NCBI GenBank assembly: GCA_041661745.1
Contig: JBAZTR010000002.1
Span: forward strand, 4,368 to 68,367
Reading direction: 5' to 3'
Origin: Patescibacteria group bacterium
GTDB taxonomy: Bacteria; Patescibacteriota; Patescibacteriia; UBA9934; GWF2-40-263
Length of the DNA: 64,000 nt
Position 1 is the first letter of the stretch; every line of letters starts with the position of its first letter. The translations under genes were made by a program, and so were the position numbers. Below are positions 1,328 through 37,095 of the stretch, piece by piece. Under the pieces are notes generated by a model. It saw only the letters and a list, made by a program, of their open reading frames with translations, was not told the origin of the DNA and searched no databases.

Positions 1328-2716
1328 CTAAATTTCTTTAACCTCGACAAAGTTGACGCGCTTGCCAACCGGTTGACCGGCCAGAACAATAACTTGGCCA
1401 CCTTTTTTAACCAAACGCTGTTTTTTAATTTGACTGGTTGAAGCGGCAATCAATTGATCGATATTTTTTGCTTTAGGCACAACCACCGGGCGAACCGACC
1501 AAGAAAGACAAAGTTGATGACGGACAAATTCCGAAGCCGTAGCCGCGATGATCGGCAACTCGGGACGAAAACGACTGACCAATCGAGCAGTACTGCCAGT
1601 TAAAGTGGCGACCAGAATAGCGTCGGCTTTTAAAGTGCGCGACAACATGTTGGCCGCTCCGCCAATCGCGTCTTCAACCATTTTTACGAACTTAGAAGTT
1701 TCATCAATGGTCACGTCATCAAACGGCGAAGCCTCAGTTTCCCGGACAATTTTTGCCATGGTGGCCACGGTTTCAACCGGATATTTACCGGTGGCCGTTT
1801 CGCCTGACAACATGACGGCATCGGTATGATCAATAACCGCGTTGGCCACGTCGGAAACTTCGGCCCGAGTCGGCCTGGGGTTGCGAATCATGGAATCAAG
1901 CATTTGGGTGGCGACAATAACCGGTTTACCGGCGGCCCGACATTTTTCAATAATTTCTTTTTGAACGAGCGGCACTTGCTCGGCCGGAATTTCCACACCC
2001 AAATCGCCGCGAGCCACCATAACCCCATCAACGGCTTGCAAAATTTTATCAAATTTTCTTACGGCCTCGTGCTTTTCGATTTTGGCAATAATCATGGGAA
2101 CTGGTTGACCTGGTTTAACCGCGCTTTTTAAAATGCGGCGCAGAGCATGAACGGCCGACGGATCAATAACAAACGACAAGGCCACATAATGTGTGCCGGC
2201 CTCTGCACAAAATATCGCATCTTTCTTGTCTTTAGGGGTAAGCGAACTAATTTTAAGCGTTGAGTCGGGAAAATTTAACCCCTTATGCGACATTAATGTG
2301 CCGCCGACATGAATTTTAATTTTCAGTTTTCCTTTGCTACCGCCGGCACAAACGCCATCCATTAAACCATCCTCCATCAAAACACGATCGCCGCGTTTAA
2401 CATCGCGATAAAGATTTTCGTAAGTCACGGGAATTTCCACGGTCGCCCCTTTAACTAATTTGATTCCTTCAACCGGCACTTCCCCCACCCTAATTTTGGG
2501 CCCCTGTAAATCACCAATAATGGCCACCGATTCATGGGCGGCTTTTTCCGCGGCCCGAATGTGACCGATTATTTTTTTGTGTTCAGCATAAGTGCCGTGC
2601 GAAAAATTAAGCCGAGCCACATTCATGCCAGACAAAATCATGCGCTTTAGAATTGGCGACGTCGCCGAAGCCGGACCGATAGTACAAACAATCTTTGTTC
2701 GTTTTTCCGTTTTCAT
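1328..2716 (-). CDS. pyk: pyruvate kinase
   Basis: 462-aa ORF beginning KIVCTIGPAS...NVARLNFSHG, with characteristic pyruvate-kinase motifs (MVARGDLGVEIP). Confidence 0.9.
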   Translation of the reverse strand: MKTEKRTKIVCTIGPASATSPILKRMILSGMNVARLNFSHGTYAEHKKIIGHIRAAEKAAHESVAIIGDLQGPKIRVGEVPVEGIKLVKGATVEIPVTYENLYRDVKRGDRVLMEDGLMDGVCAGGSKGKLKIKIHVGGTLMSHKGLNFPDSTLKISSLTPKDKKDAIFCAEAGTHYVALSFVIDPSAVHALRRILKSAVKPGQPVPMIIAKIEKHEAVRKFDKILQAVDGVMVARGDLGVEIPAEQVPLVQKEIIEKCRAAGKPVIVATQMLDSMIRNPRPTRAEVSDVANAVIDHTDAVMLSGETATGKYPVETVATMAKIVRETEASPFDDVTIDETSKFVKMVEDAIGGAANMLSRTLKADAILVATLTGSTARLVSRFRPELPIIAATASEFVRHQLCLSWSVRPVVVPKAKNIDQLIAASTSQIKKQRLVKKGGQVIVLAGQPVGKRVNFVEVKEI

Positions 2717-2726
2717 AAATTATTTT

Positions 2727-3914
2727 TTATTCACTCTCCTTATACTCTTCAAGGGTAACGGAAATTTCTATTTCAGTTCCCGAACGTAAAACCGTCATTT
2801 TCAAAGTCTCACCAGGCATATGTTCACGGACTATTTGCGACAAAGTTTCGTCTTCAGTTAAAGCCTGTCCATCAATCTTGGTAATTATATCACCCTCCTT
2901 TAAGCCGGCCTTGGCCGCTGGGCCGTCGGCCACCACGGCTGAGTCGCTACCATCGGTTGTAATCAAAGCGCCGCTATCAACTGCCAAATCATTCTCCTTG
3001 GCGTAATCTTTAGATATCACAACAAAACGCACCCCAAGCCATGGCCGAACAATTCGCCCTTCCTCTTGAACACTGGAAACGGCTTGTTTAATTTCACTAA
3101 CCGGAATAGCAAAACCCAAACCCTGGCCATTGGAGCTAACTGCTGTATTCATACCAATCACCTCACCCATCAAATTGATAAGCGGCCCGCCGGAGTTGCC
3201 GGGATTAATGGCCGCATCGGTTTGAATAGCTCCTTCGATGACTTCACCACCACTAGTGTAATCGTAAGCCGAAATGCGGCGATTAACACCAGAAACCACA
3301 CCCTTAGTCACGGTATTTTGATATTGTGAGAGAGCATTACCAATAGCAATGACAGTTTGGCCGACCTGAATATTTTCAGAATCGCCAAAAGTAACGGTGG
3401 GAAAATTAGCGCCTTCAATTTTCATTATGGCAATGTCAAAGAACGGATCCATATCAACCACTGTGGCGTCGTACTCTTGATCATCGTTGGTCACTACGGT
3501 AAAGACGGCTTCTTTAACATCGGCCACGTGACGATTGGTAACGATGTAACCGTCACTGGTCACAAAAAAACCAGTGCCTGCTCCGACCTCAATCAATTCA
3601 TCGGAAGCCGAACTGTCCGAAGGCGCTTGTCCGTAAAAATAATCGTTAAACGAATTGGCTTGTGGAACACTGGCCTTCTGTTTAATAATAATACTAACCA
3701 CGGCCGGAGTAACACTGTCGACGACACTGATCGTAGATGATTCTTCTTCAATCATGCGAACAATATTTTTATCAGCTTCGCCATTGAAAGACAATTCTGA
3801 TGATAAAGAAAGAAACTGGCCGGCCAAAAATCCGCCCAGGCCGCCAAAAGCGGTGGAGATAAGCACGGTCACGGCTAAAAGAACGATGAAAGTGGTAGAA
3901 CGTGGAGTTTCCAT
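2727..3914 (-). CDS. htrA: HtrA/DegP-family trypsin-like serine protease with a C-terminal PDZ domain
   Basis: N-terminal TM segment, GTGFFVTSDGYIVTNRHV (His box), GNSGGPL (Ser box), and a PDZ-like C-terminus. Confidence 0.85.
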   Translation of the reverse strand: METPRSTTFIVLLAVTVLISTAFGGLGGFLAGQFLSLSSELSFNGEADKNIVRMIEEESSTISVVDSVTPAVVSIIIKQKASVPQANSFNDYFYGQAPSDSSASDELIEVGAGTGFFVTSDGYIVTNRHVADVKEAVFTVVTNDDQEYDATVVDMDPFFDIAIMKIEGANFPTVTFGDSENIQVGQTVIAIGNALSQYQNTVTKGVVSGVNRRISAYDYTSGGEVIEGAIQTDAAINPGNSGGPLINLMGEVIGMNTAVSSNGQGLGFAIPVSEIKQAVSSVQEEGRIVRPWLGVRFVVISKDYAKENDLAVDSGALITTDGSDSAVVADGPAAKAGLKEGDIITKIDGQALTEDETLSQIVREHMPGETLKMTVLRSGTEIEISVTLEEYKESE

Positions 3915-4150: not shown

Positions 4151-5410
4151 TTACATCATTTTCTTTCTGATAAATGCTGGGATTTCCAATTCTTCCTCTT
4201 CAGTCGGCGGGGCCACCGGAGCCGGGCGTGGTGTTGGTCTTGGTTGTGGTTGTGGATTTATAGGAATATTTCTTAGTGGCATTGGCTCTTCGATAAATCT
4301 AGGTTTCATCGGTTGTGGCTGAACCGGCGGGGCGGCTGGTTTAGCCTGACGTTTTTCGTCTTCTTGGCGCGAGAAGAACGAGCTTGGGGTCCAAGTGCCT
4401 TGTGACTGCACCTCCACTCCACCACCCGGACGACGACGTTCGCGCTGATCAAAACCGGTCGCGACCACAGTAATACGAACTTCGTCTTTCATGTCTTCAT
4501 CAATATTGGCACCAAAGATAACCTTGGCATCTTCATCAGCCGAACTGGTAATAACCTTAGCCGCTTCGGCCACTTCGTGCATACCAAGATCTTTACCGCC
4601 GGTGATGGTAAACAAGACGCCGCGAGCGCCATCAACCGAAAGCTCAAGAAGCGGACTGGCAATAGCTTGCTTAGCGGCTTCCACGGCACGATTTTCACCT
4701 GAAGCGCGACCGATACCCATGAGAGCTGAACCAGCATCTTCCATGATCGCCTTAACATCGGCAAAGTCAACGTTAATTAATCCGGGCACGGTAATCAGTT
4801 CAGAGATTCCCTGCACACCCTGACGCAAAACATCATCAACAATATTAAAAGCGTCAATGAGAGAAGTTTTCTTATCAATAATTTGTAAAACACGATCGTT
4901 TGGAATAGTAATCACGGTATCAACAAATTGAATCAGTTGGTTATAAGCTTCATCAGCAATGCGGCGGCGTTGTGCACCTTCAAAACCAAAAGGTTTGGTA
5001 ACCACGGCAATTGTAAGAGCCCCAATGTCTTTAGCCAGTTTGGCAACTTCAGGAATTGCCCCGCTACCAGTGCCGCCACCCAAACCGCAAGTCAAAAAAA
5101 CCATATCCGCACCATTCAAGGCATTGCGAATATCGTTTTGACTTTCTTCGGCCGCACGGCGACCAAGCTCGGGATTCATGCCAGCCCCTAAACCGCGGGT
5201 GATAGTTTTACCAATGGCAATTTTGGTCGCAGCCAAGTTGGTATGAAGAGCCTGAACATCGGTGTTGATGGAAATAAAATCAACACCTTTTATTTTATCG
5301 TTGATCATGCGGTTGACCGCGGCACCACCACCACCACCAATTCCGCAAACTTTTATCTTGGCGTAGGTTTGAATGTCGGGTTTAACTTCGGCCATATATT
5401 TGGTATTCAA
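4151..5410 (-). CDS. ftsZ: cell division GTPase FtsZ
   Basis: GGGTGSG tubulin signature. Pro-rich C-terminal linker and the conserved C-terminal peptide EELEIPAFIRKK. Confidence 0.95.
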   Translation of the reverse strand: MNTKYMAEVKPDIQTYAKIKVCGIGGGGGAAVNRMINDKIKGVDFISINTDVQALHTNLAATKIAIGKTITRGLGAGMNPELGRRAAEESQNDIRNALNGADMVFLTCGLGGGTGSGAIPEVAKLAKDIGALTIAVVTKPFGFEGAQRRRIADEAYNQLIQFVDTVITIPNDRVLQIIDKKTSLIDAFNIVDDVLRQGVQGISELITVPGLINVDFADVKAIMEDAGSALMGIGRASGENRAVEAAKQAIASPLLELSVDGARGVLFTITGGKDLGMHEVAEAAKVITSSADEDAKVIFGANIDEDMKDEVRITVVATGFDQRERRRPGGGVEVQSQGTWTPSSFFSRQEDEKRQAKPAAPPVQPQPMKPRFIEEPMPLRNIPINPQPQPRPTPRPAPVAPPTEEEELEIPAFIRKKMM

Positions 5411-5503
5411 ACTAATTAAACGTGAACACTAATTTTCGTCAGTTTCCTCCATGCAGAAATACTTTATGGCTCAAGAGGGTTGTTGTAAAGGTGAAGCTGT
5501 GGA

Positions 5504-5530
5504 CAAAAAAAGACGGAAGCGTTTCCGTCT
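5504..5530 (-). terminator. rho-independent terminator between ftsA and ftsZ
   Basis: On the minus strand, AGACGGAAACGCTTCCGTCT hairpin followed by TTTTTTTG. Confidence 0.6.
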
Positions 5531-5553
5531 TGTCTTAATTTTAAATTATCGGG

Positions 5554-6813
5554 TTACGGCCTGAGCGATTTGAACCATCCACCAACCACTCCGGCAACAT
5601 TTTTTACCCCTTTCATTTTGTTAAAAATCTGACCAAACTTGCCATCGTGAACTTGGGCCATAGTGTTGTGCCCCCACAAAACCAAACCAATAGCCGTGGC
5701 CATACCCGGGTCATTCACCCGTTCAACAACCGAAGTAACACCAATTGGCGTACCAAGGGAGGCTGGCAGGCGCAGAGTCTTTTTAGCGGCTTCAACAATG
5801 CCATGCATTTTAGCTCCGCCACCGGTTAAAATAACACCGGCCGGCAACATACCGGACCGGCCGATCTTACGCAACTCCTCATCAACTTTTTCAAAAATTT
5901 CCGAAACACGAGCTTCGGCAATGTCAGCAATAAAACGACGACCAACAATTTCTTCCTCAACCGCGCCCAAGTCAGCCAAGTTTACCTCTTCTTTTTTATT
6001 AATCTCCTCTGGCGAAGCACTGGCATAACGCAATTTGGCCTTTTCTGCTACCTCAATCGAGGTTCTAAGACCGATAGCAATATCAGAAGTAATATGAGCC
6101 GCCCCAATCGGCAGAACCGCGGCGTGTAAGACATCACCTTCTTCAAAAACAATTAAACCAGTGGTCGAGGCCCCGATGTTAATAACACAGGCCCCAAGAT
6201 CTTTTTGTTTGGCAGTGATGACCGCATCGGTCGTTGCCAAAATAGACAAAACAACATCTTCGATATCAATTCCCGTGCGATGAATAGCTTTTGTAATGTT
6301 TTTGATTTGCGTTGTTTGGCCTTGAACAATAAGTGCATCCACTTCAAGACGAATGCCGGTCATACCAACCGGATCTTTAATGCCCCGCTGGCCATCAACA
6401 GTAAAGCTGCGCGGCAAGACATGTAGGATTTCGCTGTTAGCCGGCATAGCCACGGTACGGGCCGCATCAATGGCACGATCAACGTCGTCATCACGAATTT
6501 CGCTGTCGCCACGGGCCACTCCGACCACTCCGCGACTTTCCTGGCAGCTGATATGAGTTCCATTAATTCCCACCCAGGCTCGGCTCATTGGTAAACCGGT
6601 CAGACGCTCGGCTTGTTCCAAGGCCCGGGAAACCGAAGAAACCGCATCTTCAATGCTGGTGACGTTTCCTTTATTTACTCCTTCGGAAGGAATTTCAACG
6701 GCTCCGATAATATGGATAACATCTTTGCCCTCCTCGGCTGGCAAAGGCTGGCCAACCACAACCCGAACGGCGTGTGAGCCAATATCCAATCCGACAATTA
6801 TGTCTTCATTCAT
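5554..6813 (-). CDS. ftsA: cell division protein FtsA (actin-like ATPase)
   Basis: MNEDIIVGLDIGSHAVRVVVG start and actin-fold motifs, located immediately upstream of ftsZ. Confidence 0.9.
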   Translation of the reverse strand: MNEDIIVGLDIGSHAVRVVVGQPLPAEEGKDVIHIIGAVEIPSEGVNKGNVTSIEDAVSSVSRALEQAERLTGLPMSRAWVGINGTHISCQESRGVVGVARGDSEIRDDDVDRAIDAARTVAMPANSEILHVLPRSFTVDGQRGIKDPVGMTGIRLEVDALIVQGQTTQIKNITKAIHRTGIDIEDVVLSILATTDAVITAKQKDLGACVINIGASTTGLIVFEEGDVLHAAVLPIGAAHITSDIAIGLRTSIEVAEKAKLRYASASPEEINKKEEVNLADLGAVEEEIVGRRFIADIAEARVSEIFEKVDEELRKIGRSGMLPAGVILTGGGAKMHGIVEAAKKTLRLPASLGTPIGVTSVVERVNDPGMATAIGLVLWGHNTMAQVHDGKFGQIFNKMKGVKNVAGVVGGWFKSLRP

Positions 6814-6864
6814 ATCGCATTATAACCAGGCGCTACCTGTTGTTTTTATAAGTATATCGACTTT

Positions 6865-7236
6865 TCAAGCCGCGAACAAGCGGATGATGTGTGGAAAAAA
6901 AATAATAAGGCCGATAATCGCAGAAAATATCGAAGCCACTAAAACCGCCGCGGCCATAATATCTTTAATTTCTCCGACAATCGGATTAAGTCGCGGTTTA
7001 AAAGCATCAACAATTCTTTCAAAAATACTATTAATCATTTCCAGAATTAAAACCAAAGCCACCAACAAAAAGACGATAATTTTTTCAAAAGCCGTTATTG
7101 GAAAAAAGACGGCAAAAAACACAACTAGAACACCGGCTAAAAGTTGTAGACGAAAACTTTGCTCGGTTTTTGCCAAAGTCTTAATACCACGCAAAGCGTG
7201 CGAAAAACTTCTAAAGAGGGATCTAAATTTAACCAT
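6865..7236 (-). CDS. dgkA: diacylglycerol kinase / undecaprenol kinase family (DgkA)
   Basis: 123-aa protein with three TM segments and the DgkA-type EMINSIFE motif. Confidence 0.7.
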   Translation of the reverse strand: MVKFRSLFRSFSHALRGIKTLAKTEQSFRLQLLAGVLVVFFAVFFPITAFEKIIVFLLVALVLILEMINSIFERIVDAFKPRLNPIVGEIKDIMAAAVLVASIFSAIIGLIIFFPHIIRLFAA

Positions 7237-7660
7237 ATTCGGGAATCGACCAGTCGATTTTTAAACTTTTTAAAATTTTTTGTTGCAAAGTGAACATTTT
7301 TTCCGCTTCTGTTTTCTTCATATGATCAAAAGAAAACAAATGGAGCAAGCCGTGAACTAAAAGAATAACTACTTCGTCTTCTGTAGAATGACTGTATTGC
7401 CTTCCCTGCTTTTTGGCCCTGTCTAAACATATCACCACCTCACCGGCCATTGATGGATCATTAAAAGGAAAGGATAAGACGTCGGTTACTTTGTCGACCC
7501 CGCGATACTCCCGATTAAGCCGGCGAATGACCGTTGGTGAAACAAAGGCAAGCGATACCCCAACCTTCTTTTTTAATCTTAAAAAAGAAGAAACTTGTTT
7601 TAAGGTTTTTTTAAAAACTTTTTCCGACAAAAAAGGGGCTTCACATTCAACTACCAACAT
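7229..7660 (-). CDS. ybeY: rRNA maturation RNase YbeY
   Basis: HGLLHLFSFDH zinc-binding motif (HxxxHxxxxxH). Confidence 0.85.
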   Translation of the reverse strand: MLVVECEAPFLSEKVFKKTLKQVSSFLRLKKKVGVSLAFVSPTVIRRLNREYRGVDKVTDVLSFPFNDPSMAGEVVICLDRAKKQGRQYSHSTEDEVVILLVHGLLHLFSFDHMKKTEAEKMFTLQQKILKSLKIDWSIPEYG

Positions 7661-7662
7661 AA

Positions 7663-8736
7663 CTATGGCGCAAGCGTTAAATTATTCATCATCATTTCAA
7701 AAGTCGTCAAATAATCAACACTGGCTTTTACCGTGTTTTGATAACTCACAACAATCACCCTGGTCCCAGACTCAATGTAAACAGTCATCTGGTCTTCGGC
7801 TTCTAAAGTTGAATAGCCTTGTTTGGTTTCGCCGGAGGTAACTTTAACCTCAGAACTAAGATTTGTTCCACTGAACCAGTCGGCTAAGCTTACTCCGACC
7901 TCTTTACTTTCAAGGCCAATGGTTATGGTTTCACCGCTTGGGACAACAAAGGTTGTGCTTCCATCAGTTCCTTCACGAACTGTCCAGGCTTGGGGATATA
8001 AAATCTCGAAAACCCCCATCTTTTGATAAAGCGTAACAACCGAGGAATCACGTAGATGCGCCGGGTCTGGAGAATTCGGATCATAACCATTAAAAACTTC
8101 GTTACCGTCAAGAAAGCCATCGCTATCAGTATCAGGTTTTTTGGAACTTGTTTTATAAAGAATTTCTTCAGCGTCGGTCAAACCGTCGCTGTCAGTGTCG
8201 CGACCGGGCTGCGAATTATTGGGAAACGGCGAAGCTGAGTTTGTCGACGGTTGATTTGTTGCCTGATTAGTATTGGTATTGGTTGCCGGCTGATTAGTGG
8301 GTTTGTTTACATTAACTGAATTATTAGTTGTTGTGTTAACTAGAGGTGTAGTTGTTACTGGTTTAAAAACAAAATAAAGATAAACTCCGGAACCAACTAA
8401 AACTACCAGCAAAACTACCCCAGCAATTAAAAGAGCTCGGGTAGTTTTTGACATTCCCTTCTTTTTTCCCCTCACCCCTGTCCCCTCTCCCTTAGGGAGA
8501 GGGGTTGGGGAGAGGGGTCGAGGCGCTGGGACAAGCGGCGGCGGCAAAGCGGCTGGGCTAGCGGCGGCCGCTGGCTTCATTGTCGGCGGATTTACCCGAG
8601 CCGCCAAGCCGCGAAATTTTTCCGGCATGGAAAAAACCTGCGGCGCGCCTGCGGAAGCCTTGGCAGTTGGCGGAACCTCGATCTTTTTTTGTCCGGCATC
8701 TTCAAACATACTTTTTAAAATTTTCAATTTGTCCAA
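7663..8736 (-). CDS. hypothetical single-pass membrane protein with a Pro-rich cytoplasmic N-terminus, extracellular Ca-binding DxDxDG (thrombospondin-3-like) repeats and an unknown C-terminal domain; paralog 1 of 3
   Basis: Shares the MFED start with the next gene. TM helix LLIAGVVLLVVLVGSGVYLYFVF, then DTDSDGLTDAEE and DTDSDGFLDGNEV repeats. Contains an in-frame copy of the hairpin repeat at 8471-8517. Confidence 0.6.
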   Translation of the reverse strand: MDKLKILKSMFEDAGQKKIEVPPTAKASAGAPQVFSMPEKFRGLAARVNPPTMKPAAAASPAALPPPLVPAPRPLSPTPLPKGEGTGVRGKKKGMSKTTRALLIAGVVLLVVLVGSGVYLYFVFKPVTTTPLVNTTTNNSVNVNKPTNQPATNTNTNQATNQPSTNSASPFPNNSQPGRDTDSDGLTDAEEILYKTSSKKPDTDSDGFLDGNEVFNGYDPNSPDPAHLRDSSVVTLYQKMGVFEILYPQAWTVREGTDGSTTFVVPSGETITIGLESKEVGVSLADWFSGTNLSSEVKVTSGETKQGYSTLEAEDQMTVYIESGTRVIVVSYQNTVKASVDYLTTFEMMMNNLTLAP

Positions 8737-8743
8737 TTATCAA

Positions 8744-9361
8744 CTAGTTATTTCCCGGCAGTTCAAACAATTTTCCGGCCCCGTTGGGATTATAACCGCT
8801 TTTGACTTCGGCTCCATCAAGATAACTGTCGCCGTCAGTATCAGGATTAAGCGGATCGGTTTTATAGACATCAACTTCCTCTCGGTCAAACAGTCCGTCG
8901 TCGTCAGTATCGGTTTTTTGGGCACTGGTACCAAGCTCGGCTTCGCGGGCGTCGGTTAATCCATCTTTATCAGTATCGACTTCCACAACGGTTTCTGGCA
9001 CAACTTCCTCTACGAGAGTCTCTTCCTCCTCAACATTTGTAGTTTGCTCCACAGCCGCGTTGTTGGCAATATTGGTTAAACTTTCGGTAACCGGCTCGCG
9101 GCTGCCTAAAATCATTGTCGACAACCATGCTCCGACGGCAATTACTATCACGGCGCCCATAATAATAATGATTGGTTTCCAACCTGAACTATGATTAATC
9201 ACCGGCGCTGTTTGCGGCGGCATTGGGGTTGGCGCGGAAACGAGCGGTGGCACTGAAGGGGTGGCGACCGGTCGTTGCGGCGGACGAAAAGGTGGCGGAA
9301 CATCCTCGGGTTTATCGGTTTCGGCAAAAATATCCGGTGGCTGTTTTATATCTTCGAACAT
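8744..9361 (-). CDS. hypothetical single-pass membrane protein with C-terminal Ca-binding DxDxDG repeats; paralog 2 of 3
   Basis: MFEDIKQ start, Pro-rich segment, one TM helix. DTDKDGLTDAREAE, DTDDDGLFD and DTDGDSYLDGAEVKSGYNPNGAGKL repeats. Confidence 0.6.
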   Translation of the reverse strand: MFEDIKQPPDIFAETDKPEDVPPPFRPPQRPVATPSVPPLVSAPTPMPPQTAPVINHSSGWKPIIIIMGAVIVIAVGAWLSTMILGSREPVTESLTNIANNAAVEQTTNVEEEETLVEEVVPETVVEVDTDKDGLTDAREAELGTSAQKTDTDDDGLFDREEVDVYKTDPLNPDTDGDSYLDGAEVKSGYNPNGAGKLFELPGNN

Positions 9362-9396
9362 AATTTTATTTTCTAATTTTTAATTAAGAAAAAATT

Positions 9397-10296
9397 TTAT
9401 AATTTTCCCGGACCCAAAGGATTATAACCACTTTCCAATTCGTCTTTGTCGCTATAACCGTCACCGTCAGTATCAACTTTAGACGGATCAGTGTGATAAA
9501 GATTATATTCGTCGGCATCGGATAAACCATCGCCATCCGAATCAAGACTGGTATCACTCGAACCAAGCGAAGCTTCTAACTCAGCATTCAAGTCATCGTG
9601 ATCACGATCGCCGGAACCAACCGTATCAAGACAAGTCCCTTGGTCACCACTGTCGGATAAAGCCGCGCAGCGATCAGGATCTTCGCTGGCTACTGCTTCG
9701 GCTAAATTTTTCTGCTGATCGCAAACTGTCTGATCAACTCCAGTACCAGAACAGCCTTTGGTTTTAGCGATTTCTTCAGACAAAGTACTGACACAACGTT
9801 CTCTGGTTATATCGCCGGAAATTTGCTCACACCGAGAAATATCTAAATCCCGTAAAGCTAAGGCGCGATAAACTGAATCAGCACATTCTTTTTGAGTTTC
9901 GTTATCATCAATTAAATCGCAAGCAGCCGCTTGGTAACTTTCCCGGGCAACTTTCCACACACAAGAAATCATAGCTTGGCCTTCCAGTTCAGTACAAACT
10001 TCGGCCACCCCATTATTTTGGGCGGCCGCCTCAATCAAAGTAGCCCGGCAGGCCTCGGGGTTTCTTTCTTCGTCACACGTGGACAAGGCTTGGTTTAATT
10101 CTTGTTCAGCTAAAAGCGCGGCGGCCTCATTTTGCGTCGCTTGGTTTCGGTTTTGTACTAACCAACTTACACCCATAATTATCGCGGCAATTAAAACCAC
10201 GGCCACGGTAATAATTATGATTAGCTTCCAAGTTACTTTTGGCTTACTCGGCATTTCGTAACTAGGTGGGGTTTGGTAATAGGAGGGGGTATCCAT
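9397..10296 (-). CDS. hypothetical single-pass membrane protein with a Cys-rich ectodomain and C-terminal Ca-binding DxDxDG repeats; paralog 3 of 3
   Basis: TM helix LIIIITVAVVLIAAIIMGV. Multiple Cys in a helical region. Ends DSDGDGLSDADEYNLYHTDPSKVDTDGDGYSDKDELESGYNPLGPGKL, the same terminal motif as paralog 2. Confidence 0.6.
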   Translation of the reverse strand: MDTPSYYQTPPSYEMPSKPKVTWKLIIIITVAVVLIAAIIMGVSWLVQNRNQATQNEAAALLAEQELNQALSTCDEERNPEACRATLIEAAAQNNGVAEVCTELEGQAMISCVWKVARESYQAAACDLIDDNETQKECADSVYRALALRDLDISRCEQISGDITRERCVSTLSEEIAKTKGCSGTGVDQTVCDQQKNLAEAVASEDPDRCAALSDSGDQGTCLDTVGSGDRDHDDLNAELEASLGSSDTSLDSDGDGLSDADEYNLYHTDPSKVDTDGDGYSDKDELESGYNPLGPGKL

Positions 10297-10304
10297 AGAA
10301 TATT

Positions 10305-13300
10305 TTACGGGAAGAACATGTCTTCAATTGATGACGAATCGCAATCATCGCCACAGGTATTAGCTACACAAGTCCCAGCTGTAGTTCCCCACACACCACT
10401 AGTTACACCGCAATAAAGGCTGGCCGACGACGAACCAACAACACATAGTCTATTTGTGTAGTCATAAAGAACTGGTGGCAAAATAAGTCTACGTGATCCA
10501 CCATCACAAATTCCCAAATCATCAGCGGCCATGGCAGAATAACCAGGGCCAAACAAAGAACAATCGCAAGTAGCTGTGTCAGTACAACTGGAAGCAAGTT
10601 TAATAACACGCGAGGCTGGATTAGTGGCACCTCTAACGCAATAAATATCCTCAAAAGCTGTTTCGTCACAAGACTCGCCACCGTCTATTATACTATCGCC
10701 GCAGACCGGCAAATAAGCCGACAGTGTATCGGTAGAACAAGTGCCATCACAAGTATTTGCCTTGCAGACTCCAGCATCGGCCCCAGAGCCGCACATTGCC
10801 TCGGACCACGAAGTTGACGTATAGCAAACCGCGCTATCAAAATCATAACCACCGGTTGTTCCGCCACTACAAATGCCCAGAATGTTTCCATAATTTTCGG
10901 CATAACCGGCGTCACAACCAGTATCTGATCCAAGAGCATAAATATCTCGCAGGCTTGGATCTTCATCAAAGTTAACGCAATATTTTGGAAAATCTCCCCC
11001 GTCACAATATTCACCGTCGGCCGTATCAATTCCACCATCACCGCAACCGGAATCGCAGGCATCACCGATTCCGTCACTGTCAGCATCGGCCTGACTAACA
11101 TTAACAACACTCGGACAATTATCTTCCACGTCAACAATTCCATCACCATCAGTATCAGCTAAAGTTTCGCCGCCGCCGACCGAGCCGACCGAGCCGGCCG
11201 CCCCCTCACAAACATCACCAATTTCGTTTAAGTTTGCGTCTGCTTGATCTTCGTTAGCATCGTTCGGACAATTATCATTAAAATCAAGAACGCCGTCACC
11301 GTCTGAATCTATAGTCGAAGACGCCCCGGTTCCAACACTAGCCGAGCTGGCCGGACAATAGGAAAGTTTAATATCACTAATATTCACGGTTCCTTCGCCG
11401 CTGAAAGAAATACGGAAAGGAATATTCCATTCGTTCTCTGTGTCACAGCCGAAGCCCTCGGGAAATGGAATAACAACATCATCGCCATCAAAAACTTCAT
11501 CCGAAGTCAAAGTGGTTTCTCCGGCAAAGTCAGTGGTGAAAGTCATGGTCAAACCAATAATACTGTCGGCGATTTGTTGATACATTTCGTCGAGGTCATC
11601 GGAGGAGCTGGCACTAAAAGCATATTCGATATCATCAGTTACCGAACAGTCGGCGACATTGCTATAAGCAGTTTCGGACGGATCGTTCTCGAGACAAGAA
11701 TCAGACGACCAATGGGCCATTTTACCAATAAGCGCATCAGTGGTCATGAGTGCTGCGGTATAAATTTCAATACCGTTAGCAATCGCCGCATTTCTAATGT
11801 CTTGAATTTCTTCGTAATATTTATAAGCCGAGGTATAGGTACTGCTATCAATAAGAACGTTTGGATCCCCATCACTTAAAAGAATAATGATTTGATCATC
11901 AGCCTCACTATCCTCAAGTATATTTGCCGCGCACTGCAAACCGGCCGATAAAGGTGTACTACCTCCAGTTCTTGTTGAATAACTTTCCACACTGTATTCA
12001 CCATAAATCAACTGTGATTCGTTTGTTGTTAAATCGCTATCAATCCAAGCCAATCCAGTCGTTCCGGCGGAATTGGTTATGCAAGCATCGGCCAAAGTGA
12101 TTGCTCCATCGTTATTATGATCCGAGCCATCTTCTAAAGTATTGGTAAAGCTAACCAAACCAATTTGCAAATTACTATAATCATCAAAGGCATTAAATAG
12201 TTCTTGAATAGCTGACGAGATTGAATTAACCGTTGCTTCAATCTTTGTCGAAGACATGCTTCCCGATAAATCAGTCACAAAAACAATATCAACATCCAGC
12301 GGAATAATATTAGTTGTGTCGATATCGGCCGTCAGTGATGTGCCGACCGAACAGGCTGGTAAGAAAATAGAAGCCGTGTCAGGACTATCTCCCGAATTAT
12401 AACTGTAAAGATCAGCCGAGGTTTCTTCAGTTGCTCCGGCCAATTCGGTTTGAATGGAAACCGAAGTCGTTGAATAGGAAAAAGGACAGGTGGCACTGCA
12501 AGTGGCCCCGCAGTCGGCAACCATACAAGTTCCACCGCTAGAATCAATTCCGCAGTCATAGCCGGAAGAGCCAGTCCCGGCGACACATGGTGCGCCGTTG
12601 TAATCATAATAACCGTCTAATGTACAAATAAAATCGCCACAGACAGACGCTTGACGCCAGCCGCCATTACAAACACCGACCTGTTCCAAACAGTGGTAAT
12701 TATTATCCGTATCGCAGTCGGCGTCAGTTTCACAAGCCGAAGTCGAGATTCCGCGCTCGTCGGGATTTGTCCCAGCCAAATAACAATACTTTGGCAAATC
12801 CGAACCATCACAGAATTCACCGGTTTGCATTACCCCGTCACCACAATAAGAACCGGACATCGTAGTGTATTGGCAATTAACATTACAATAATTACAGGTG
12901 CCACTATAATCAGGTGAACAAACCGTGCCGTTTTCCAATCCATCGTCGCAAGTTTCATGGCCGGCATAAACCGCATCATCACCACAAATATTAAATTTAC
13001 ATTCCGCAGTACAGTCGTCGGTATTATCGTCGTTGCCATCATCACATTCTTCATCACCTTCAACACTGCCGTTGCCGCAAATTTGCGTGCCACCCAAACA
13101 AGCACTCCAGGTGTTCCAACCACAAGCGCCGCCAGTGCCATCGTCACAAGTTCGATAACGAGAAAGTTGATATTCAAAAGACGTCTTGCAGTCGCCGCCT
13201 CCGGTACAATCAGCGTCTTCACTACATTCTTCATTGTCACGATCGCCGCCATCACAAACCGCAGAAATCGGACAAGCAGCATAAACTGTGCCGCAATCGG

Positions 13301-16300
13301 TTTCATCACAATCAGCATCGGTTGTACAGGTCGCATAATTATCAGCTGCGCCGCACAAAGCCCCATTCCATGCTTCACTATTACCATCACATGATTCATC
13401 GCTATTCACTTCCCCATCGCCGCAAGACGGCCCGGGATAAGAGCAGTCGTAGGCGCAAGTGTGTGCCGCGTCAGCATCGTAAATGCCGTTAGCGTCCGCG
13501 CAAGAATTAATTGTTGACCAACTGGAAGTATCGGCGTGGACATCGGTCCAATTGGCAGTTGAACCGCAATCACATTCTTCGCCGCCGGCTAAATAACCAT
13601 CACCGCAATACCAGGCGTTATCCAAACCACAGTCACTGTCACAATATCCGTATTCTCCATTATTTGTTCCGTCATCGCAAGTTTCACCAGGATCAAGAAC
13701 ACCATTGCCACATTCATAAGGTGAACAAGAGCCACCAGCTGCTTCGGCTTCGGATTCATCCATGTAATCAGAACAATCAGAAAGACACGGAGCGTCCATT
13801 GTCCCATTGTTATCATCGATGCCGTCGTCGTCGCTATCGTAGGTACAAGAAATTGTGTCGGTATTACCTAATTCACAAATTTCACTTAAACCACGCACGC
13901 CATCACCGCAACGTGTCGAGGTTCCCAAATTTGAACCATTACAGAACTCACTATCAATTCTAAACCCATTTGCCACGTCTTCCGCATTGGCAAACTCCGC
14001 ATAAACAGTGGCATTATCAGTTGAATCGTCATCAATCGGATAAGCCCAATAATCACCAGGGGAATCTTCAAGTTGCACTGAAAGAATATATTCCTCACCG
14101 CCAATACTTTGATAAAGATAGGTATTAGAATCTTCGCTGCAAGAAAAAGTGCCGGCCGTTGAATCCCAACAATAAGTTTGATCAGTATAACCGGGACAAT
14201 AGAATTCGTTTAGAGGATCAGTAGGAATAGCTGTACCAAGGGCATTACCCAACTCAGCGTTCCATGATGGCCAAGTACTGGTGGAGAAAGCGGAAAGAAA
14301 TGTCCCGCTTTGAATTTCTGGCACTTCGGCCATACAGGTTTCATCATCGCCCGGACAATCATCATCCTCACTGCAATCCTGGCCTTTTGTTACCGAGCAG
14401 TGACGATTTTCTTCGCCGTAAGCGGCCAAGTCAGAGGCAATTTTACGAGCATCGGTTAAGCGTACCATGTTGCGACGCAGTTTTCCTTTTTCCGCATCAC
14501 AGAAAGCCGAAGCGTCGCTTAATTCACTAATACAATCCAAATTAGAAACACACGAAACATAATCACCTTCGGCGTTAACCGCGTAATCTCCGTCTGAAAC
14601 ACAGACATTAATGTCACTTACTTCAAGATCGCCAGAACTATTAAGACCGGCATTAAATTTCCAGTTCTCTAAAACCTGTTCAACAATGGCATCAGTTTCT
14701 TCACCAGCTCCTTCGTTATAAGAAATTACATAAATATTCGGATAATTGGTGACACTTGAAGAACTGTAATTAGCCGCTGAAACATAATAAGTATTACCGT
14801 CCTGAACCGCCTCATAGCCGTCCACTGTCGTTTCACTAGGTGAACCGGAAAAACCTTGAACATCAAACCAGGCCGATGGTGAAAGATAGTCCTCGTTGGA
14901 GAAAACCCGGACACCGATAGCGTCGCTGGTGCCATCAATTAAAAAGAGTCGCTCTTGAAGAATGTCCACGCCGCTCGGGGTAACCGGCGGTTCAACTTCG
15001 ATAAGCTCTGGTAAATTATCGCTTCCCTCTTGGTCGCGACAATAATAAAAGGAGAAATTAGAATAATCTTCAAGATACGGGAAAGCGGCGGTCATCGGAT
15101 TTGGCCACAAGGTTTCGCACATGTTCGCCTCCAGTTCAGCCGAACCGGTTACAATTGTGCCGTCAGAAACCACTGTGGCCGAGGCCGAGGCTAATTCCTC
15201 ACCGTTCACTCCCGAGGAGGTGACGGTGGTTGTTACATCATCGACATTGATCACTTCAATTACTGTCTCGGCCGACTCGTCGCCCCAACCCCAAGTCCAT
15301 GAGTAGTCATCGATTTCTTGAATTTCTTCGGCCGAAGCACCATCTAAAGTATAAGACGCGGCCAAAAGTGTGTGTTCTTCACCGGATTCGGTAAACAAGT
15401 ACGCACTCGGCTCGTCAAAAATATCCTTCAATTCGGTTTTACCAGTATCTTCAACGGAAACCATTTCCAAAGCGCAAATTTCCGTACCAACTTCAAAATT
15501 AACAATTTCACCATCGTAAATCGCCACGCCGTTGGTATTAACAACCCCTTCAACAATATTATCTAGTGGGTCACCGGCTGACTCGCCTAAAGCCACCAAA
15601 TTATAAGTTCCACTTTCAAGAGCCTGAGAAAAATCAAGATCAATTCTTGAACCATCACCAAGCTCGGATAAAGTATAAGAAACCGGAACAAGACATGCAC
15701 CAAACGTCTCCGCGTGAACCCCAAGAATTCTCAAAACGTTTTGAGCCAGCCATCCCCAAGCCCGGGAAAATAAATTATCACCCGAATCGTTGCGAGCAAT
15801 CAGCAAAGTAGTATAAGTGGTTGGACAGTTTGTTTCGTCGACAGCAATAGCAGTTGGTCCGGTGCCGATAGAAACAAATTCCAAATACAAAGCTCGTGAA
15901 TCATTTAGTCCGCCAGCGTCCATGGTTTGATCAAAATCCATGTAAACTGAAGTATTGCGACACACACCAGTTGACCCGGCAACCGGGTAATAGTCAGTAA
16001 TGGCCGGGCGTTTAAAACAACAAGCGGCATCGCCACATCCATAAGTTATACCACTGGTGTCACAGTTATAATCAGAGACACATGAACATTCCAGAGTGAA
16101 AGTCGCTGACCCCTCAGCCTCACTTGAACCCTCGGTCGCCACAATAGATGTAATGGCAATATTTTCACCGGAAGCCAAAACTTCTTGTGGTGCTTCTTCG
16201 GAAATTTCAGCAATGGTAAATGGGGCAACGCTGGTCACCCCGCTCGCTTCACACTCCTCACCAGCCTCGGTTTCTAAATCAAGGTCACCGCAAATTGAAC

Positions 16301-19300
16301 CATAATCTTCGTCCGATCCTTCACTCAAGCAAAGAGATGAACAACCGTCGTCATCGGTGGTATTGCCATCATCACAATCTTCGCCGGTTCCGATTTCACC
16401 ATCGCCACAAGCTGAAGGAATAGAGTAAGACGATGACGAACCTTCGTTTAGGCAAGACGACGAACACCCATCGCCATCGGTGGTGTTGCCGTCATCGCAA
16501 TCTTCGCCGTGTTCCGGGTCACTGCCATTGCCGCAGACACCATAAAAATTATCAATCGTTTCAGAACCTTCATTCAGACAATTGGCTGAGCAGTTATAAG
16601 CGGCTTTATCTTCACCGTAATCACACTCTTCCCCGCCAATCATATTGCTGTGAGCCACGAGACCGTCACCACAATCATATCCCAGGGATGAAGCCCCTTC
16701 GTTCAAACAAATAGACGAACAACCGTCATTGTTTGAAGTATTACCTAATTCGTCGCATTCCTCACCGATTCCTACTGCGCCATCACCGCAAACCGAAGGA
16801 GTACTGTAACTTCCACCGGAACCCAAACGAAGACAAGAAGAAGAACAGCCTTCCGTACCATCACAATCCTCCCCAAAGTCAATTTCACCATCACCACAAA
16901 CAGCTATCGGAGTTTCGGTTCCAATATGCAAACAATCTAAAGAACAACCATCGGCTAAATTATTAGAAATCATGATTGCCCCGCCACCAACCAAGTCGGC
17001 AATATTAGCCGTTGGCAATTCATCAGTTTCATCAATGGCCACCCAGGTTTCCCAGGTGTAGCCAGCGGCTATTAGTCGTTGGCCTTCGGCTGAACAGGCA
17101 TCGGGTGAGCCGTACGGCACAGCCGTAAAACGTTGAATTGTCCCAACCCGAGTGGCTGTGGCTTCGTTTGGTTCAACTTCTACTCGATCGACAGTACAAG
17201 CCTCAGCTTTAGTCGTAAAGGTCCATGACAAATCACCGTACCAAGCCAGGTCACCGGCCGCTTCACTTAACAACGAACCGCTCTCTGATTCAGCTTCACC
17301 AGAAATGATCACGCGATAAGAAGTATCAATCAACAAATTTCCGGGCGGAACAATTGTCAGTATGTCAGTTTCGTCATCGTAACTCGAGGCGACTGAACTA
17401 ATTTCTACTAGTTCATCAGGGGCACAACCTGGATCCTCGCAACTAAACAATCTAACTATTTGTTCACCACCACTATCCGTTCCGGAAAAAGTTCCGGCGG
17501 CCATTGGAATATTAAAAGTTGCGCCGATTTCCGCATCCAGGCAAGCTTCGGTACAACTCGGCCAGTAATCAGTAATTTTTGGATCAGTAAAGCTGATGGT
17601 TAAATATCCGTCATCACTGACACTGTAACCATCGGGCTGAGCATTAATCGCAACCGGGCCATCGGTGCCGGTTTCTTCCTCGGCTATAACCATCGCCCCA
17701 CAGCCGACAACACTACCAACACTTGCCTTACTCGAATCGCTGGAAGAAAAATTCCAGGTGTAAGGTGAACAGTCTAAAACCGTGCACTGATATTCCGAAC
17801 TGGTCGGCGCAGCACTATAAGCAATTTCCTCGTTTTGTATGTTTGAAGTCTTTTCGCCTGGCGAAACAATAACTCCACCAATTTCACAAGCGTCTCCAGA
17901 AGCCGCAGTTTCAAATTCCCAAATAACGTCTTCAAGCATTACTAAACCTTCGATACTTTGTATTGTTCCGACCTCACCACCATAAACGGTCACGCGATAT
18001 CGAGTATCGGCGGCCCAATCAGACGCGGGTATCCAGGTAAAACCACTTTCATTATAAGAAGTCGGCGAACTTTCCATTTCCACAGCCGCGGTGTCCGAAC
18101 AGGTTTTATCAGTACACTGCTCTACCAAAAAGCCGGCAGTTGAATATGAAAGCGCGTCCATGTCTTCGGTGAAACTGACACTTAAAGCCGCGTTAGAACA
18201 AATCTTTGTTCCGCCATCCCAACCTTCCCAAGGTGTCGGGGAAACCCATGTTTCATCACACTCAATGCGAACATCTGGCGCTTCAGGAATATCACCGGTG
18301 GAAAAATAATAGGCGTAATGTGAAACAGTCTCAGGGTCAACGCATTCCGTTGCTGAACAAGCCCCACTAGCACAACAAGTTTCACCCGAGCCGCAAGAAA
18401 AATCAACGTTACAAACGCCAACAGTAAAATTAACTTTGTTGGATTTCTGAGCATCACTGTCAATTACAATAACCGGACCACTGTTTGTGTCAGCAGGAAC
18501 AACCACGCCGGTTGTTTCACCAATTGCTCCACTCGTCCAATCATCAGTTGTGGCTGTTTGATCATTGAAAAAAGAAATCGAGCCGACCGTGGTACCAAAC
18601 CCCTCACCATATAAAGTAACCGCTGTGCCGACCGGACCGGAATTGGGAACAATGGCACAAAATCCGGGGGCCGCTTCGCCAGTAGTCACAACAAAGTTAA
18701 CTGCTTCGGATTTTAAACCATCTTCGGCCCGCTGTATGTATAAATCATGAGTAATCGCATCAACCGAATTGGTGTTGCTGTATTTCGCGGGAACTTTAAT
18801 AATAATTTCAGTATCACTCCAAAAACTGTCTTCGCATTCATCGGGAAAATTTGTGTCGCCTAAAGCTTCGTAATCTGTGCTTTGGCTAACAAACCGAACC
18901 GTTCCTTCGCTGGTACCAAAACCAGAACCATAAATGGTTAAATATTGGCCAATCGGGCCTTCTTCAGGATCAACCTGACTAATTACCGGAAGTTCCTCCT
19001 CAGTAACCGAAGTGGTAACAAATTGGAGTTCGTTAGAGCCCTCACGAGCATCGCCACTGCCGGTAAACAATTGAATATCGAAAATTCCGGCATCCAATAA
19101 CGGCGACACGGCCCCGAAAGATGTTGTTGACCAATCGCTGTAACTGGCCGCTTCATAAGAATCAAAATAAAGCGTAGCGTCAGTGCTTGATTCCCCAAGG
19201 TTAATACCGTGAAGTGTAACGGCAGAGCCAGCCTCGCCGCTTTCCGGATCAATAGAACAAAGGCCGGGGCGAACTGTTTCATTAACTTCAAAGTCGCTGA

Positions 19301-22843: not shown

Positions 22844-23194
22844 TTACGTTGCCAAAAGATTTATAAGCCATGACGAAGCCAATATATACAAAAAAATCAT
22901 CACCACAACCCCAATTCCCCCGGTTACTATCATACGCCGACTTTTAGACACGGTCTCATCACGCCCCGAAGACACAATGTATTTAAAAGCACCTTGTAAT
23001 ATGGTTAGAAGAAACAAAAGTCCAAAAAAAACCGCAGCCACTCGCAAGCTACGAAAAACAAATTCCATCGGCAGCATTGACGACGAGGCAAAAAAAGAAC
23101 CAGTCGACGAAACTGTTGTTTCATTCACCGCCGCTTGGTTTGATTGATTGGTCGCGTTAATTGATTTAACCACGGCCAGCAAAGTTTCCTTCAC
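22844..23194 (-). CDS. small TrbC/VirB2-type pilin-like protein (116 aa)
   Basis: Signal/TM segment, the central SSGRDETV motif between two hydrophobic helices, and a size typical of T4SS pilins. First of three consecutive pilin-like genes. Confidence 0.6.
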   Translation of the reverse strand: MKETLLAVVKSINATNQSNQAAVNETTVSSTGSFFASSSMLPMEFVFRSLRVAAVFFGLLFLLTILQGAFKYIVSSGRDETVSKSRRMIVTGGIGVVVMIFLYILASSWLINLLAT

Positions 23195-23641: not shown

Positions 23642-23685
23642 ATGAAATGATTATAGCAAAAAGGCGGCCAAGGCCGCCAGTTTGT

Positions 23686-31530: not shown

Positions 31531-31619
31531 GTTCAACTTGTTCAAGTGTTCAAAATGTTCACTGTCGACCGATCTACAAAACCAAAAATGAACAATTTGA
31601 ACATATGGACACTTGAACA
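31531..31619. repeat. near-palindromic array of 8-9-bp periodic GTTCAA/TGAACA motifs (copy A; 4 forward plus 3 inverted units)
   Basis: GTTCAActtGTTCAAgtGTTCAAaatGTTCAC ...26 nt... TGAACAattTGAACA..TTGAACA. The architecture and periodicity match copy B at 43484-43575. Confidence 0.6.
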
Positions 31620-31629
31620 AAAAAACAAC

Positions 31630-37059: not shown

Positions 37060-37095
37060 GGAACAAAAATTTTTGTTCCCTATTTTGTTTTTATT
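37058..37095. terminator. bidirectional rho-independent terminator between convergent relA and parB
   Basis: Perfect palindrome AGGGAACAAAAATTTTTGTTCCCT flanked by A-runs and T-runs on both sides. Confidence 0.7.

Follow-up and report, generated by a model that had tools for sequence, protein, structure and literature searches.

Three families of small TSP3-repeat proteins encoded beside a giant pilin-like gene in Uhrbacteria and related Patescibacteria

Three genes and the repeat module that they share

We analysed three small neighbouring genes in the genome of an uncultivated Patescibacterium of the Uhrbacteria type. They lie in a 64-kb stretch of contig JBAZTR010000002.1 (64,000 nucleotides, hereafter the window), directly downstream of a gene for a giant multidomain protein, and the analysis was purely computational. 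The contig recurs in ENA, NCBI and Logan assemblies. A preliminary description of the DNA had seen here, in positions 7663-10296, a tandem triplet of paralogous single-pass membrane proteins with calcium-binding repeats of the thrombospondin type 3 (TSP3) kind and had proposed that they serve the giant protein as anchors or co-receptors. The interval indeed holds three genuine, consecutive genes, designated A, B and C in the order of transcription; these and all other features lie on the minus strand unless stated otherwise. Gene A (9397-10296) is an open reading frame (ORF) of 299 amino acids (aa), with a short cytoplasmic tail, a transmembrane (TM) helix, an ectodomain of Cys-stapled helical hairpins, three TSP3_bac repeats and the end SGYNPLGPGKL. 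Gene B (8744-9361) is an ORF of 205 aa, called identically on public contigs, and consists of a Pro-rich cytoplasmic tail, a TM helix, an acidic linker, three TSP3_bac repeats and the tail GYNPNGAGKLFELPGNN. Gene C (7663-8709) encodes 348 aa, starting with a Pro-rich cytoplasmic tail of ~90 aa, followed by a TM helix, an N/T-rich (N/T/P-rich) linker, two TSP3 repeats and a PsbP-like domain. The giant gene stops at 10305 and A starts at 10296, which confirms the 8-nucleotide (nt) gap given earlier.

The ORF of C reaches further upstream, to a TTG at 8736 (357 aa), but the ATG at 8709 (MFEDAG) is backed by a public call of 348 aa that is 100% identical and by the orthologue alignment (A3). B and C share the start MFED, as had been described, and their start contexts are near-identical (9352-9367 for B, 8700-8715 for C): ATG TTY GAA GAT behind an A/T-rich leader, with no Shine-Dalgarno sequence in either leader. 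An MF[DE] start is a genuine feature of the B family, while in the C family MF starts occur in only 39 of 210 full-length members and are less common than MA or MP starts (together 104 of 210). The start that B and C have in common may partly reflect constraints of translation initiation besides those on the protein.

What joins the three proteins is the repeat module. The Pfam model TSP3_bac (PF18884, cut-off 25 bits) scores 45.3 bits in A and 37.6 bits in B, both above the cut-off, and 22.5 bits, just below it, in C; among 109 relatives of C, 83 match the model at E<0.01. The repeats occupy residues 230-299 of A (9400-9609; one degenerate and two canonical DxDxDG loops, with motifs at residues 252 and 275), residues 129-198 of B (8768-8977; Pfam and motif scan) and residues 171-216 of C (8062-8199; two repeats, beginning DTDSDGLTDAEE and DTDSDGFLDGNEVF). 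By composition-adjusted BLASTP, A and B are 53% identical over 70 aa (E 2e-18), B and C 60% over 43 aa (E 6e-13), and A and C 51% over 45 aa (E 4e-10), so that the similarity of the repeats is true homology and not a matter of composition. Outside this module of 43-70 aa a short TM match is the most that is found between the proteins. In the six-frame translation of the whole window, DxDxDG[LFYIV]xD occurs 10 times: twice each in A, B and C and four times in the giant gene. The predicted calcium ligands are invariant in the orthologues of A (D252/D254/D256/G257/E263 and D275/D277/D279/D283/E286), as are the equivalent DxDxDG...D..E positions in the orthologue alignments of B and C, and the Asp, Gly and Glu positions of the C repeats are invariant across 109 sequences. 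Judging from these conserved positions, the modules of all three proteins are predicted to bind Ca2+.

The motif SGYNPxGxGKL, singled out in the preliminary description, is present at the ends of A (SGYNPLGPGKL) and B (SGYNPNGAGKL, then FELPGNN to the end of the protein), but it is no signature of the trio. The TSP3_bac repeat is 22 residues long and ends in E-x-x-x-G-T-D-P, and the motif corresponds to the tail of the last repeat (E-L-E-S-G-Y-N-P-L-G). Small Patescibacterial proteins found through the repeat only end in a like manner, with (K/N)GYNPLG(P/A)GK and then either L... or a C..C loop, so that the motif is generic in this group. The module itself is evidently promiscuous, since OmpA-family proteins of Bacteroidota match it at 50-75% identity, about as well as the three proteins match each other. 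According to 10.1101/2023.11.21.568195, which cites Dai et al. 2017, OmpA-family proteins carry TSP3 repeats between the barrel and OmpA_C. The likeness lies in the 22-residue DxDxDGLxDxxE...TDP repeat, presumably a Ca2+-loaded spacer of the envelope. In contrast, A, B and C have neither a beta-barrel nor OmpA_C (PF00691), which is present in distant repeat-only matches, and their module sits on an N-terminal signal-anchor helix, combined with a Cys-hairpin or a PsbP-like domain.

Among solved structures, the B region of Staphylococcus Bap (7c7r/7c7u) alone shows similarity at the sequence level; protein B matches it at E 1.5e-4 in a sequence search of the PDB (7c7r). The local fold match to the TSP3 module has a probability of 1.00, a root-mean-square deviation (rmsd) of 1.0-1.7 Å and ~40% identity; for the TSP3 part of A, local Foldseek gives a probability of 1.00, an rmsd of 1.7 Å and 42% identity to 7c7r. 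The B region of Bap responds to Ca2+. Bap is, however, a huge cell-wall-anchored adhesin of a Gram-positive bacterium, and only ~45-50 residues correspond, the remainder being unrelated. Matches to the NCBIfam models of MtsD, CglD, GltJ, FliL, an anti-sigma factor and GspL are weak, far under the cut-offs, and were rejected as attributable to the TSP3 repeats, the TM helix or low complexity.

Topology and distinct ectodomains of A, B and C

There is one hydrophobic helix per protein, at residues 23-47 of A (10156-10230), 61-85 of B (9107-9181) and 92-115 of C (8365-8436), in agreement with the single-pass, repeat-bearing layout first described. For C, the N-in/C-out topology is supported by the positive-inside rule, since in 87% of 84 orthologues K and R are more numerous ahead of the helix than behind it; a basic stretch, RGKKKGMSKTTR, precedes the helix in the window protein. 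For A and B we infer an ectodomain outside the cell because the invariant Cys pairs of A stand C-terminal to its TM helix and because the repeats are of the Ca-binding type. Altogether, A, B and C are best explained as members of three separate conserved families, each made up of membrane proteins with a single pass and an N-in/C-out orientation. The cytoplasmic N-termini had been called Pro-rich or of low complexity; the tails of B and C are Pro-rich, and that of A is only ~22 aa long.

A has several dozen near-full-length homologues, and those with a source name all come from Uhrbacteria or unclassified Patescibacteria. Its ectodomain is more than the helix plus repeats seen at first: a Cys-rich helical repeat domain of ~155 aa with 12 Cys (residues 74-229; 9610-10077) had been overlooked. 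The cysteines form six C-x(8-11)-C pairs, each across a hairpin of a short and a long helix; all 12 are invariant in five orthologues (alignment A1), and among 48 (A5) each is either invariant or conserved to at least 90%, while B and C contain no cysteine at all. In the AlphaFold2 (AF2) model, with a mean predicted local distance difference test score (pLDDT) of 92.2, the TM helix runs on as one long helix (H23-76), followed by the six hairpins and then the TSP3 repeats. The Cys-rich domain has no match in Pfam or NCBIfam, including a Pfam scan across 48 relatives, and no significant fold in the PDB by Foldseek (none below E 0.4; the best, at E 0.49, were designed helical repeats or TPR-like), so that it is assigned to no fold family. 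A is a family separate from B and C. A comparable architecture of TM helix, Cys repeats and TSP3 is found elsewhere too, for example in P0179 from Minisyncoccia.

C has 332 homologues at E<=1e-3, and identity across the homologues of the A and C families goes down to ~30%. Its cytoplasmic tail carries the conserved motif QVFSMPEKFRGLA (8602-8640), with the family form [VI][MI]PE[KE][FY][RY]G. M28, P29, R33 and G34 are invariant in alignment A3, M, P and R hardly vary among 109 sequences, and a regular expression finds the motif in 156 of the 210 full-length members. The unrelated C-terminal domain noted in the preliminary description exists, but it had been assigned to the first protein of the row, and its carrier is C, the last to be transcribed. 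It is an alpha/beta domain of ~130 aa (residues 217-348; 7666-8061), modelled together with the repeats as one compact unit (AF2 with an alignment of 109 sequences; pLDDT 94.1, predicted TM-score 0.90). The Foldseek matches in the PDB are CyanoP (2xb3; E 9e-5, probability 1.00), BT_1490, Mog1, Tsi3 and the DUF1795 chaperone SciW, with probabilities of ~1.0, E values from 9e-5 to 1e-3 and target-normalised TM-scores of 0.45-0.54. On the evidence of the model, the domain is thus a PsbP/Mog1-like alpha-beta-alpha sandwich. Such a sandwich typically serves to bind proteins; the PsbP, CyanoP, Mog1, DUF1795 (SciW, Eag chaperones) and Tsi3 members of this fold are non-enzymatic protein-binding modules. 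Although C shares the fold of PsbP, CyanoP, Mog1, SciW and Tsi3, the sequence identity is only 10-14%, and in none of the matched structures is the domain joined to TSP3 repeats and a signal-anchor helix.

Neither Pfam nor NCBIfam matches the C-terminal domain of the window protein, and none of the 109 relatives has a Pfam match there. A search with the domain alone against 1.84 billion representative proteins gave only 277 matches at E<=1e-3; nearly all of these proteins measure 300-470 aa and carry the domain C-terminally. Of the 127 representatives that the search behind the 332 homologues had not yet retrieved, 118 contain a DxDxD motif and 101 possess a TM helix, and most of those with no TM helix are short and apparently fragmentary. 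The proteins form a narrow, coherent and previously uncharacterised family. The ectodomain of the C family is modular. In some lineages the TM helix is followed by an inserted FN3 domain and only then by the TSP3 repeats, and one lineage inserts a DUF4215-like CGNG..GE.CD repeat, the repeat type with which the giant protein is filled; modular C-type ectodomains are seen in the second C-type gene of loci L060, L067, L082, L086 and L088 and at L090:10650-11753.

The ectodomain of B consists of the acidic linker and the three repeats, with nothing further, and a TM helix is present in all 73 B-type ORFs analysed. A strikingly conserved part of the family is the cytoplasmic N-terminal peptide MFEDIKQPPDIFAETDKP (9308-9361), with the consensus MFDxxxKxPEDIFAxTD, in which M1, F2, D10 and F12 are invariant across 28 species; the B proteins of Falkowbacteria-like genomes (see below) have it as well (MFNDL...VDDIFADTDK). 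A search for the PEDIF motif on other ectodomains, with a profile of the 45-aa N-terminus, returned nothing at E<=10 from 5.8 billion sequences, the motif being too short for a database of that size. In sister lineages, the gene at the position of B joins a B-type N-terminus (MFDS...KKEPEDIFADID) to a TSP3 and PsbP-like ectodomain that is 34% identical to the window C over 187 aa (E 8e-24). Because of this intermediate, B and C are true paralogues, with the PsbP-like domain lacking in the window B. To speak of a paralogous triplet, as was done at first, says too much for this genome, in which the three proteins have only the promiscuous module in common and differ in their ectodomains.

Conservation of the gene order

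Downstream of C, Pfam identifies ybeY (7229-7660), dgkA (6865-7236), ftsA (5554-6813) and ftsZ (4151-5410), a co-oriented block that spans 4151-7660. The genes are closely packed in the window, with 35 nt between A and B, 34 nt between B and C, 2 nt between C and ybeY, and an overlap of 8 nt between ybeY and dgkA. The first five diverged contigs already showed the order giant gene (3,300-3,550 aa), A, B, C, ybeY, dgkA, ftsA, ftsZ. A scan of the GTDB species representatives found a relative of C in 168 species, and 80 loci were kept, all from Uhrbacteria or other Patescibacteria. Every ORF in them was annotated with phmmer; 79 loci had downstream DNA, and 68 had enough upstream DNA to be informative, the other 11 being cut by contig ends. 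The giant gene is directly upstream of the TSP3 genes in all 68 informative loci, and ybeY directly follows C in all 79. The interval between the giant gene and ybeY holds A, B and C in 48 of the 68 loci, two TSP3 genes and C in 8, one TSP3 gene and C in 6, a C-type gene and C in 5, and C only in 1. The median gaps, computed with naive longest-ORF starts, are 3 nt (giant gene to A), 39 nt (A to B), 12 nt (B to C), -4 nt (C to ybeY), -4 nt (ybeY to dgkA), 13.5 nt (dgkA to ftsA) and 156 nt (ftsA to ftsZ). Loci L013, L020-L023, L025 and L026, like many other cluster-bearing metagenome-assembled genomes among the GTDB representatives, come from entries titled 'uncultured Gammaproteobacteria bacterium', which are evidently mislabelled.

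Four more small TSP3 proteins were picked by a repeat match alone and the context of each was inspected. Three of the four lie directly after a giant T4SS_pilin/TIG/Big_5 gene and are followed by C-type genes and ybeY, and the giant gene is directly upstream in loci L090-L093. The fourth, together with one protein named as Falkowbacteria, is encoded on Falkowbacteria-like contigs (L089, L092), where the giant gene is followed by a gene of 1366 aa (not in every case), one of 90 aa, a B-like gene, a C-like gene (30% identical to C over 182 aa, E 2e-15), clpP on the opposite strand and secD, and then by secF, Wzy_C, a prepilin peptidase gene, ftsA and ftsZ. Both ybeY and dgkA are absent from this series; ftsA-ftsZ lie 6-8 kb downstream on the same strand, with five genes between B/C and ftsA. 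The tie to the giant gene is thus more conserved than the ftsA-ftsZ neighbourhood, which is kept loosely.

This distribution bears on the view that the small proteins are independent surface proteins of a generic kind, a TM helix with TSP3 repeats (for example Ca2+-binding spacers of the wall zone, or cation buffers), which are neighbours through duplication or inherited order. Such proteins do exist: an architecture of TM helix, several TSP3 repeats and GYNPLGxGK is common in many Patescibacteria, and the promiscuity of the module, with its OmpA-family matches, fits the same picture. Likewise, the number of genes and the ectodomains vary between subclades (FN3 and DUF4215 inserts, replacement of A), and the genomes surveyed come from related candidate phyla. 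However, every small TSP3 protein whose context was inspected lies directly downstream of a giant pilin-like gene, including the three picked by the repeat alone. Moreover, the gene order is kept at ~30% protein identity although the genes beyond ftsZ differ, the gaps are tight or overlapping, and the family-specific cytoplasmic motifs argue for specific partners. We therefore consider this view unlikely, though it deserves some weight.

Only two convincing terminator-like hairpins were found on the minus strand, at 23678-23663 (before yqeY) and at 5531-5510 (after ftsA), and none between the giant gene and ftsA. The giant gene and the trio probably belong to one long transcription unit that runs into ybeY-dgkA-ftsA; the terminator pattern is compatible with this and is not evidence for it. 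The hairpin at 23663-23678, between hisS and yqeY, has a GC-only 6-bp stem (GGCGGCCTTGGCCGCC) followed by TTTTT and is a likely upstream boundary of the unit with the pilin-like genes and the trio. The one at 5510-5531, between ftsA and ftsZ, has a perfect 9-bp stem with T-runs on both strands and resembles a bidirectional terminator or an attenuator. The top sigma-70-like match (7681-7710; TTGACG-18-AATAAT, 10/12) falls within the 3' end of gene C, a short way ahead of ybeY, where it could act as an internal promoter for ybeY-dgkA-ftsA; such matches are no commoner than in shuffled sequence.

Given the genes downstream, the trio might also have a role in the divisome or the envelope together with ybeY-dgkA-ftsA-ftsZ, as bitopic proteins like FtsQ/FtsL/FtsB or FtsN whose cytoplasmic peptides contact FtsA or FtsZ and whose ectodomains stand in the wall zone. 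FtsQ, FtsL, FtsB and FtsN are small N-in single-pass proteins too. The trio of Uhrbacteria is in every case encoded upstream of ftsA, with ybeY-dgkA in between. FtsN, with its N-terminal peptide, TM helix, low-complexity linker and globular C-terminal domain, parallels the layout of C. The invariable succession of C and ybeY, with a median overlap of 4 nt and with ftsA-ftsZ beyond, the short distance of ftsA-ftsZ on the same strand even in the Falkowbacteria-like contigs, the conserved cytoplasmic peptides of B and C, and the prolongation of the A TM helix into a long helix, as in FtsL/FtsB, all speak for this role. On the other hand, neither a POTRA/FtsQ_DivIB_C nor an FtsL, DivIC/FtsB or SPOR domain was detected with Pfam and NCBIfam at E<=0.1. 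The trio differs from the Fts proteins in that ybeY-dgkA intervene, that the copy number varies from 1 to 3 genes, and that in L089 and L092 B and C remain beside the giant gene but are parted from ftsA by clpP, secDF, Wzy_C and prepilin peptidase genes. The pair ybeY-dgkA is a widespread housekeeping pair, so that adjacency to it says little. The C motif was also considered as a mimic of the FtsZ C-terminal peptide and rejected, since the peptide of this genome, EIPAFIRKK, has a different spacing of P, F and R. On balance, a role in the divisome seems improbable to us.

The giant protein and possible roles of the trio

The giant protein (3521 aa; 10305-20870, domains from Pfam) begins with a pilin-like N-terminus of two TM helices, followed by Big_7, TIG, Big_5, DUF4215 Cys repeats, VWA and TSP_3 repeats; its T4SS_pilin (PF18895) score is 25.8 bits against a cut-off of 26.6. 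Only 4 nt upstream lies the gene of a 624-aa protein with T4SS_pilin (30 bits) and Big_5 (49.8 bits; 20875-22749), the equivalent of which, with 638 aa, precedes the giant gene in L090. A further ORF of 116 aa (22844-23194) has a TM-loop-TM layout and a weak NCBIfam pilin-like match (E 0.022) and may tentatively be taken as the first gene of the array. The 116-aa, 624-aa and 3521-aa genes have a common N-terminal pattern, TM-'GG/SGR(D/E)E..K.K'-TM, and the tandem looks like a pilin array that grows from a bare pilin to a giant multidomain protein. Arrays of 2-11 VirB2-like pilin genes have been reported in Patescibacteria (PMC12102498), a paper with no mention of TSP3 or thrombospondin. The likeness to those arrays lies in the tandem N-termini of the T4SS_pilin type with two TM helices in the upstream genes (for the 116-aa gene tentatively). 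A, B and C differ in having a single TM helix and no match to PF18895, and the window genes scanned include no VirB4 or VirB6.

The proposed functional tie of the trio to the giant gene is supported by very strong synteny, which persists in the Falkowbacteria-like genomes. It is different with the mechanism suggested at first, in which Ca2+ would join the small proteins, as co-receptors or anchors, to the TSP3 repeats of the giant protein. The window protein does have such repeats (TSP_3, PF02412, 30.9 bits; DxDxDG motifs at residues 2345, 3188, 3239 and 3262), and its gene is adjacent, across the gap of 8 nt. Those repeats are, however, of the Cys-containing, eukaryote-like type (~3188-3275, window 10305-11330), which belongs to a Pfam family other than PF18884. 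Of 59 orthologous giant proteins, with 1,400-3,000 C-terminal residues available, 44 have no DxDxDGxxD at all and only 2 have the Cys-containing DNC-type TSP_3 motif, and a TSP3 query from B matched none of 77 giant ORFs. The TSP_3 repeats of the giant protein are thus lineage-specific. As these motifs are not conserved, a conserved partnership cannot depend on TSP3-TSP3 pairing. The need for separate membrane anchors is not obvious, given the pilin-like anchor that the giant protein has of its own. In addition, according to two studies cited in 10.1101/2023.11.21.568195 (Kvansakul 2004; Dai 2017), known TSP3 repeats wrap Ca2+ within a single chain. Pairing between the two sets of repeats is therefore largely refuted by the lack of conservation and very improbable.

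A parallel is offered by the dockerin-cohesin systems and by Omnitrophota, in which giant proteins of the dockerin/TSP3 type have been described (10.1101/2023.11.21.568195; 10.64898/2026.06.07.730766): a duplicated, EF-hand-like Ca2+ loop of ~22 residues on extracellular proteins tied to giant surface proteins. In contrast to dockerins, the trio has no Dockerin_1 (PF00404) match at E<=0.1 and carries its repeats on separate small membrane proteins, and Pfam finds no cohesin domain in the giant protein.

The reading that we favour, with moderate confidence, is that A, B and C are membrane-anchored accessory or adaptor subunits of the giant surface-protein system. Their functional link to the giant protein is deduced from gene order, and physical contact with it or with a cytoplasmic partner is a prediction. 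In such a system, Ca2+ binding would fold and stiffen the TSP3 modules into short, rigid stalks, as in Bap and in the TSP3 repeats of OmpA (the latter from Dai 2017, as cited in 10.1101/2023.11.21.568195), and these would present the ectodomains of A and C in the wall zone. There, the ectodomains could bind or organise the giant surface protein or else contact the wall, while the cytoplasmic peptides of B (MFDxxxKxPEDIFAxTD) and C ([VI][MI]PE[KE][FY][RY]G) might tie the assembly to a putative cytoplasmic partner.

Several points weigh against this reading. All evidence for the coupling comes from the order of genes in candidate phyla that are related to each other, so that phylogenetic inertia may account for part of it, and in Uhrbacteria the block is joined just as tightly to ybeY-dgkA-ftsA-ftsZ. 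The pilin-like N-terminal anchor of the giant protein counts here too, and the count of K/R around the helix is ambiguous for A and B. The promoter scan was uninformative, with 27 sites against 28.3 expected from shuffled sequence. Finally, a complex of fixed stoichiometry is unlikely, as a locus may hold one, two or three of the small genes and some subclades have a replacement for A.

The giant protein and the division genes might also be connected. B and C, with A in Uhrbacteria, would then form a transmembrane coupling device peculiar to the Uhrbacteria and Falkowbacteria lineages. Outside, the pilin-anchored giant attachment protein would be held or positioned by the PsbP-like domain together with TSP3 modules that act, like dockerins, in a Ca2+-dependent way; inside, the invariant peptides of B and C would bind the FtsA/FtsZ machinery, whose genes follow a little further downstream. 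We regard such a device as very improbable. If it were true, the division plane of these ultra-small, presumably episymbiotic cells would be the reference for placing or inheriting a host-attachment structure.

The PF18884 repeat, the PsbP-like fold and the pilin arrays are already known, and in public records the proteins bear the labels 'hypothetical' or 'thrombospondin type 3 repeat-containing'. In the literature searched for TSP3 or thrombospondin together with CPR (candidate phyla radiation), Uhrbacteria or Patescibacteria, we found no description of the trio or the locus. What appears to be new are the three architectures, the paralogy of B and C, the cytoplasmic peptides and the locus of a giant gene followed by TSP3 genes in Uhrbacteria and Falkowbacteria-like genomes. 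Much of bacterial diversity belongs to the Patescibacteria (CPR), whose surface contacts with hosts are poorly understood. Three 'hypothetical proteins' become defined families (A, TM helix, Cys-hairpins and TSP3; B, PEDIF peptide, TM helix and TSP3; C, TM helix, TSP3 and PsbP-like domain), a concrete candidate for a surface complex of Uhrbacteria and Falkowbacteria is obtained, and the conserved cytoplasmic peptides MFDDLKKEPEDIFAETDK and QVFSMPEKFRGLA might serve as baits. Should the link reflect nothing but inherited gene order, the result would amount to a neat annotation of Ca-repeat surface proteins of a common kind.

Elsewhere in the window, the genes that were scanned are housekeeping genes only (parAB, topA, dprA, hisS, lepB and others), with no type IV secretion system (T4SS) machinery seen among them. 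Two ORFs, at 33918-35450 (510 aa) and 39393-39857 on the plus strand (154 aa), have no Pfam match at E<=1e-4. The genes parB and parA (37094-38729), topA (31546-33873, plus strand) and dprA (30373-31467, plus strand) are 15-30 kb from the locus; the cluster may thus be origin-proximal, and a similar location has been noted for T4SS genes of Patescibacteria (PMC12102498).

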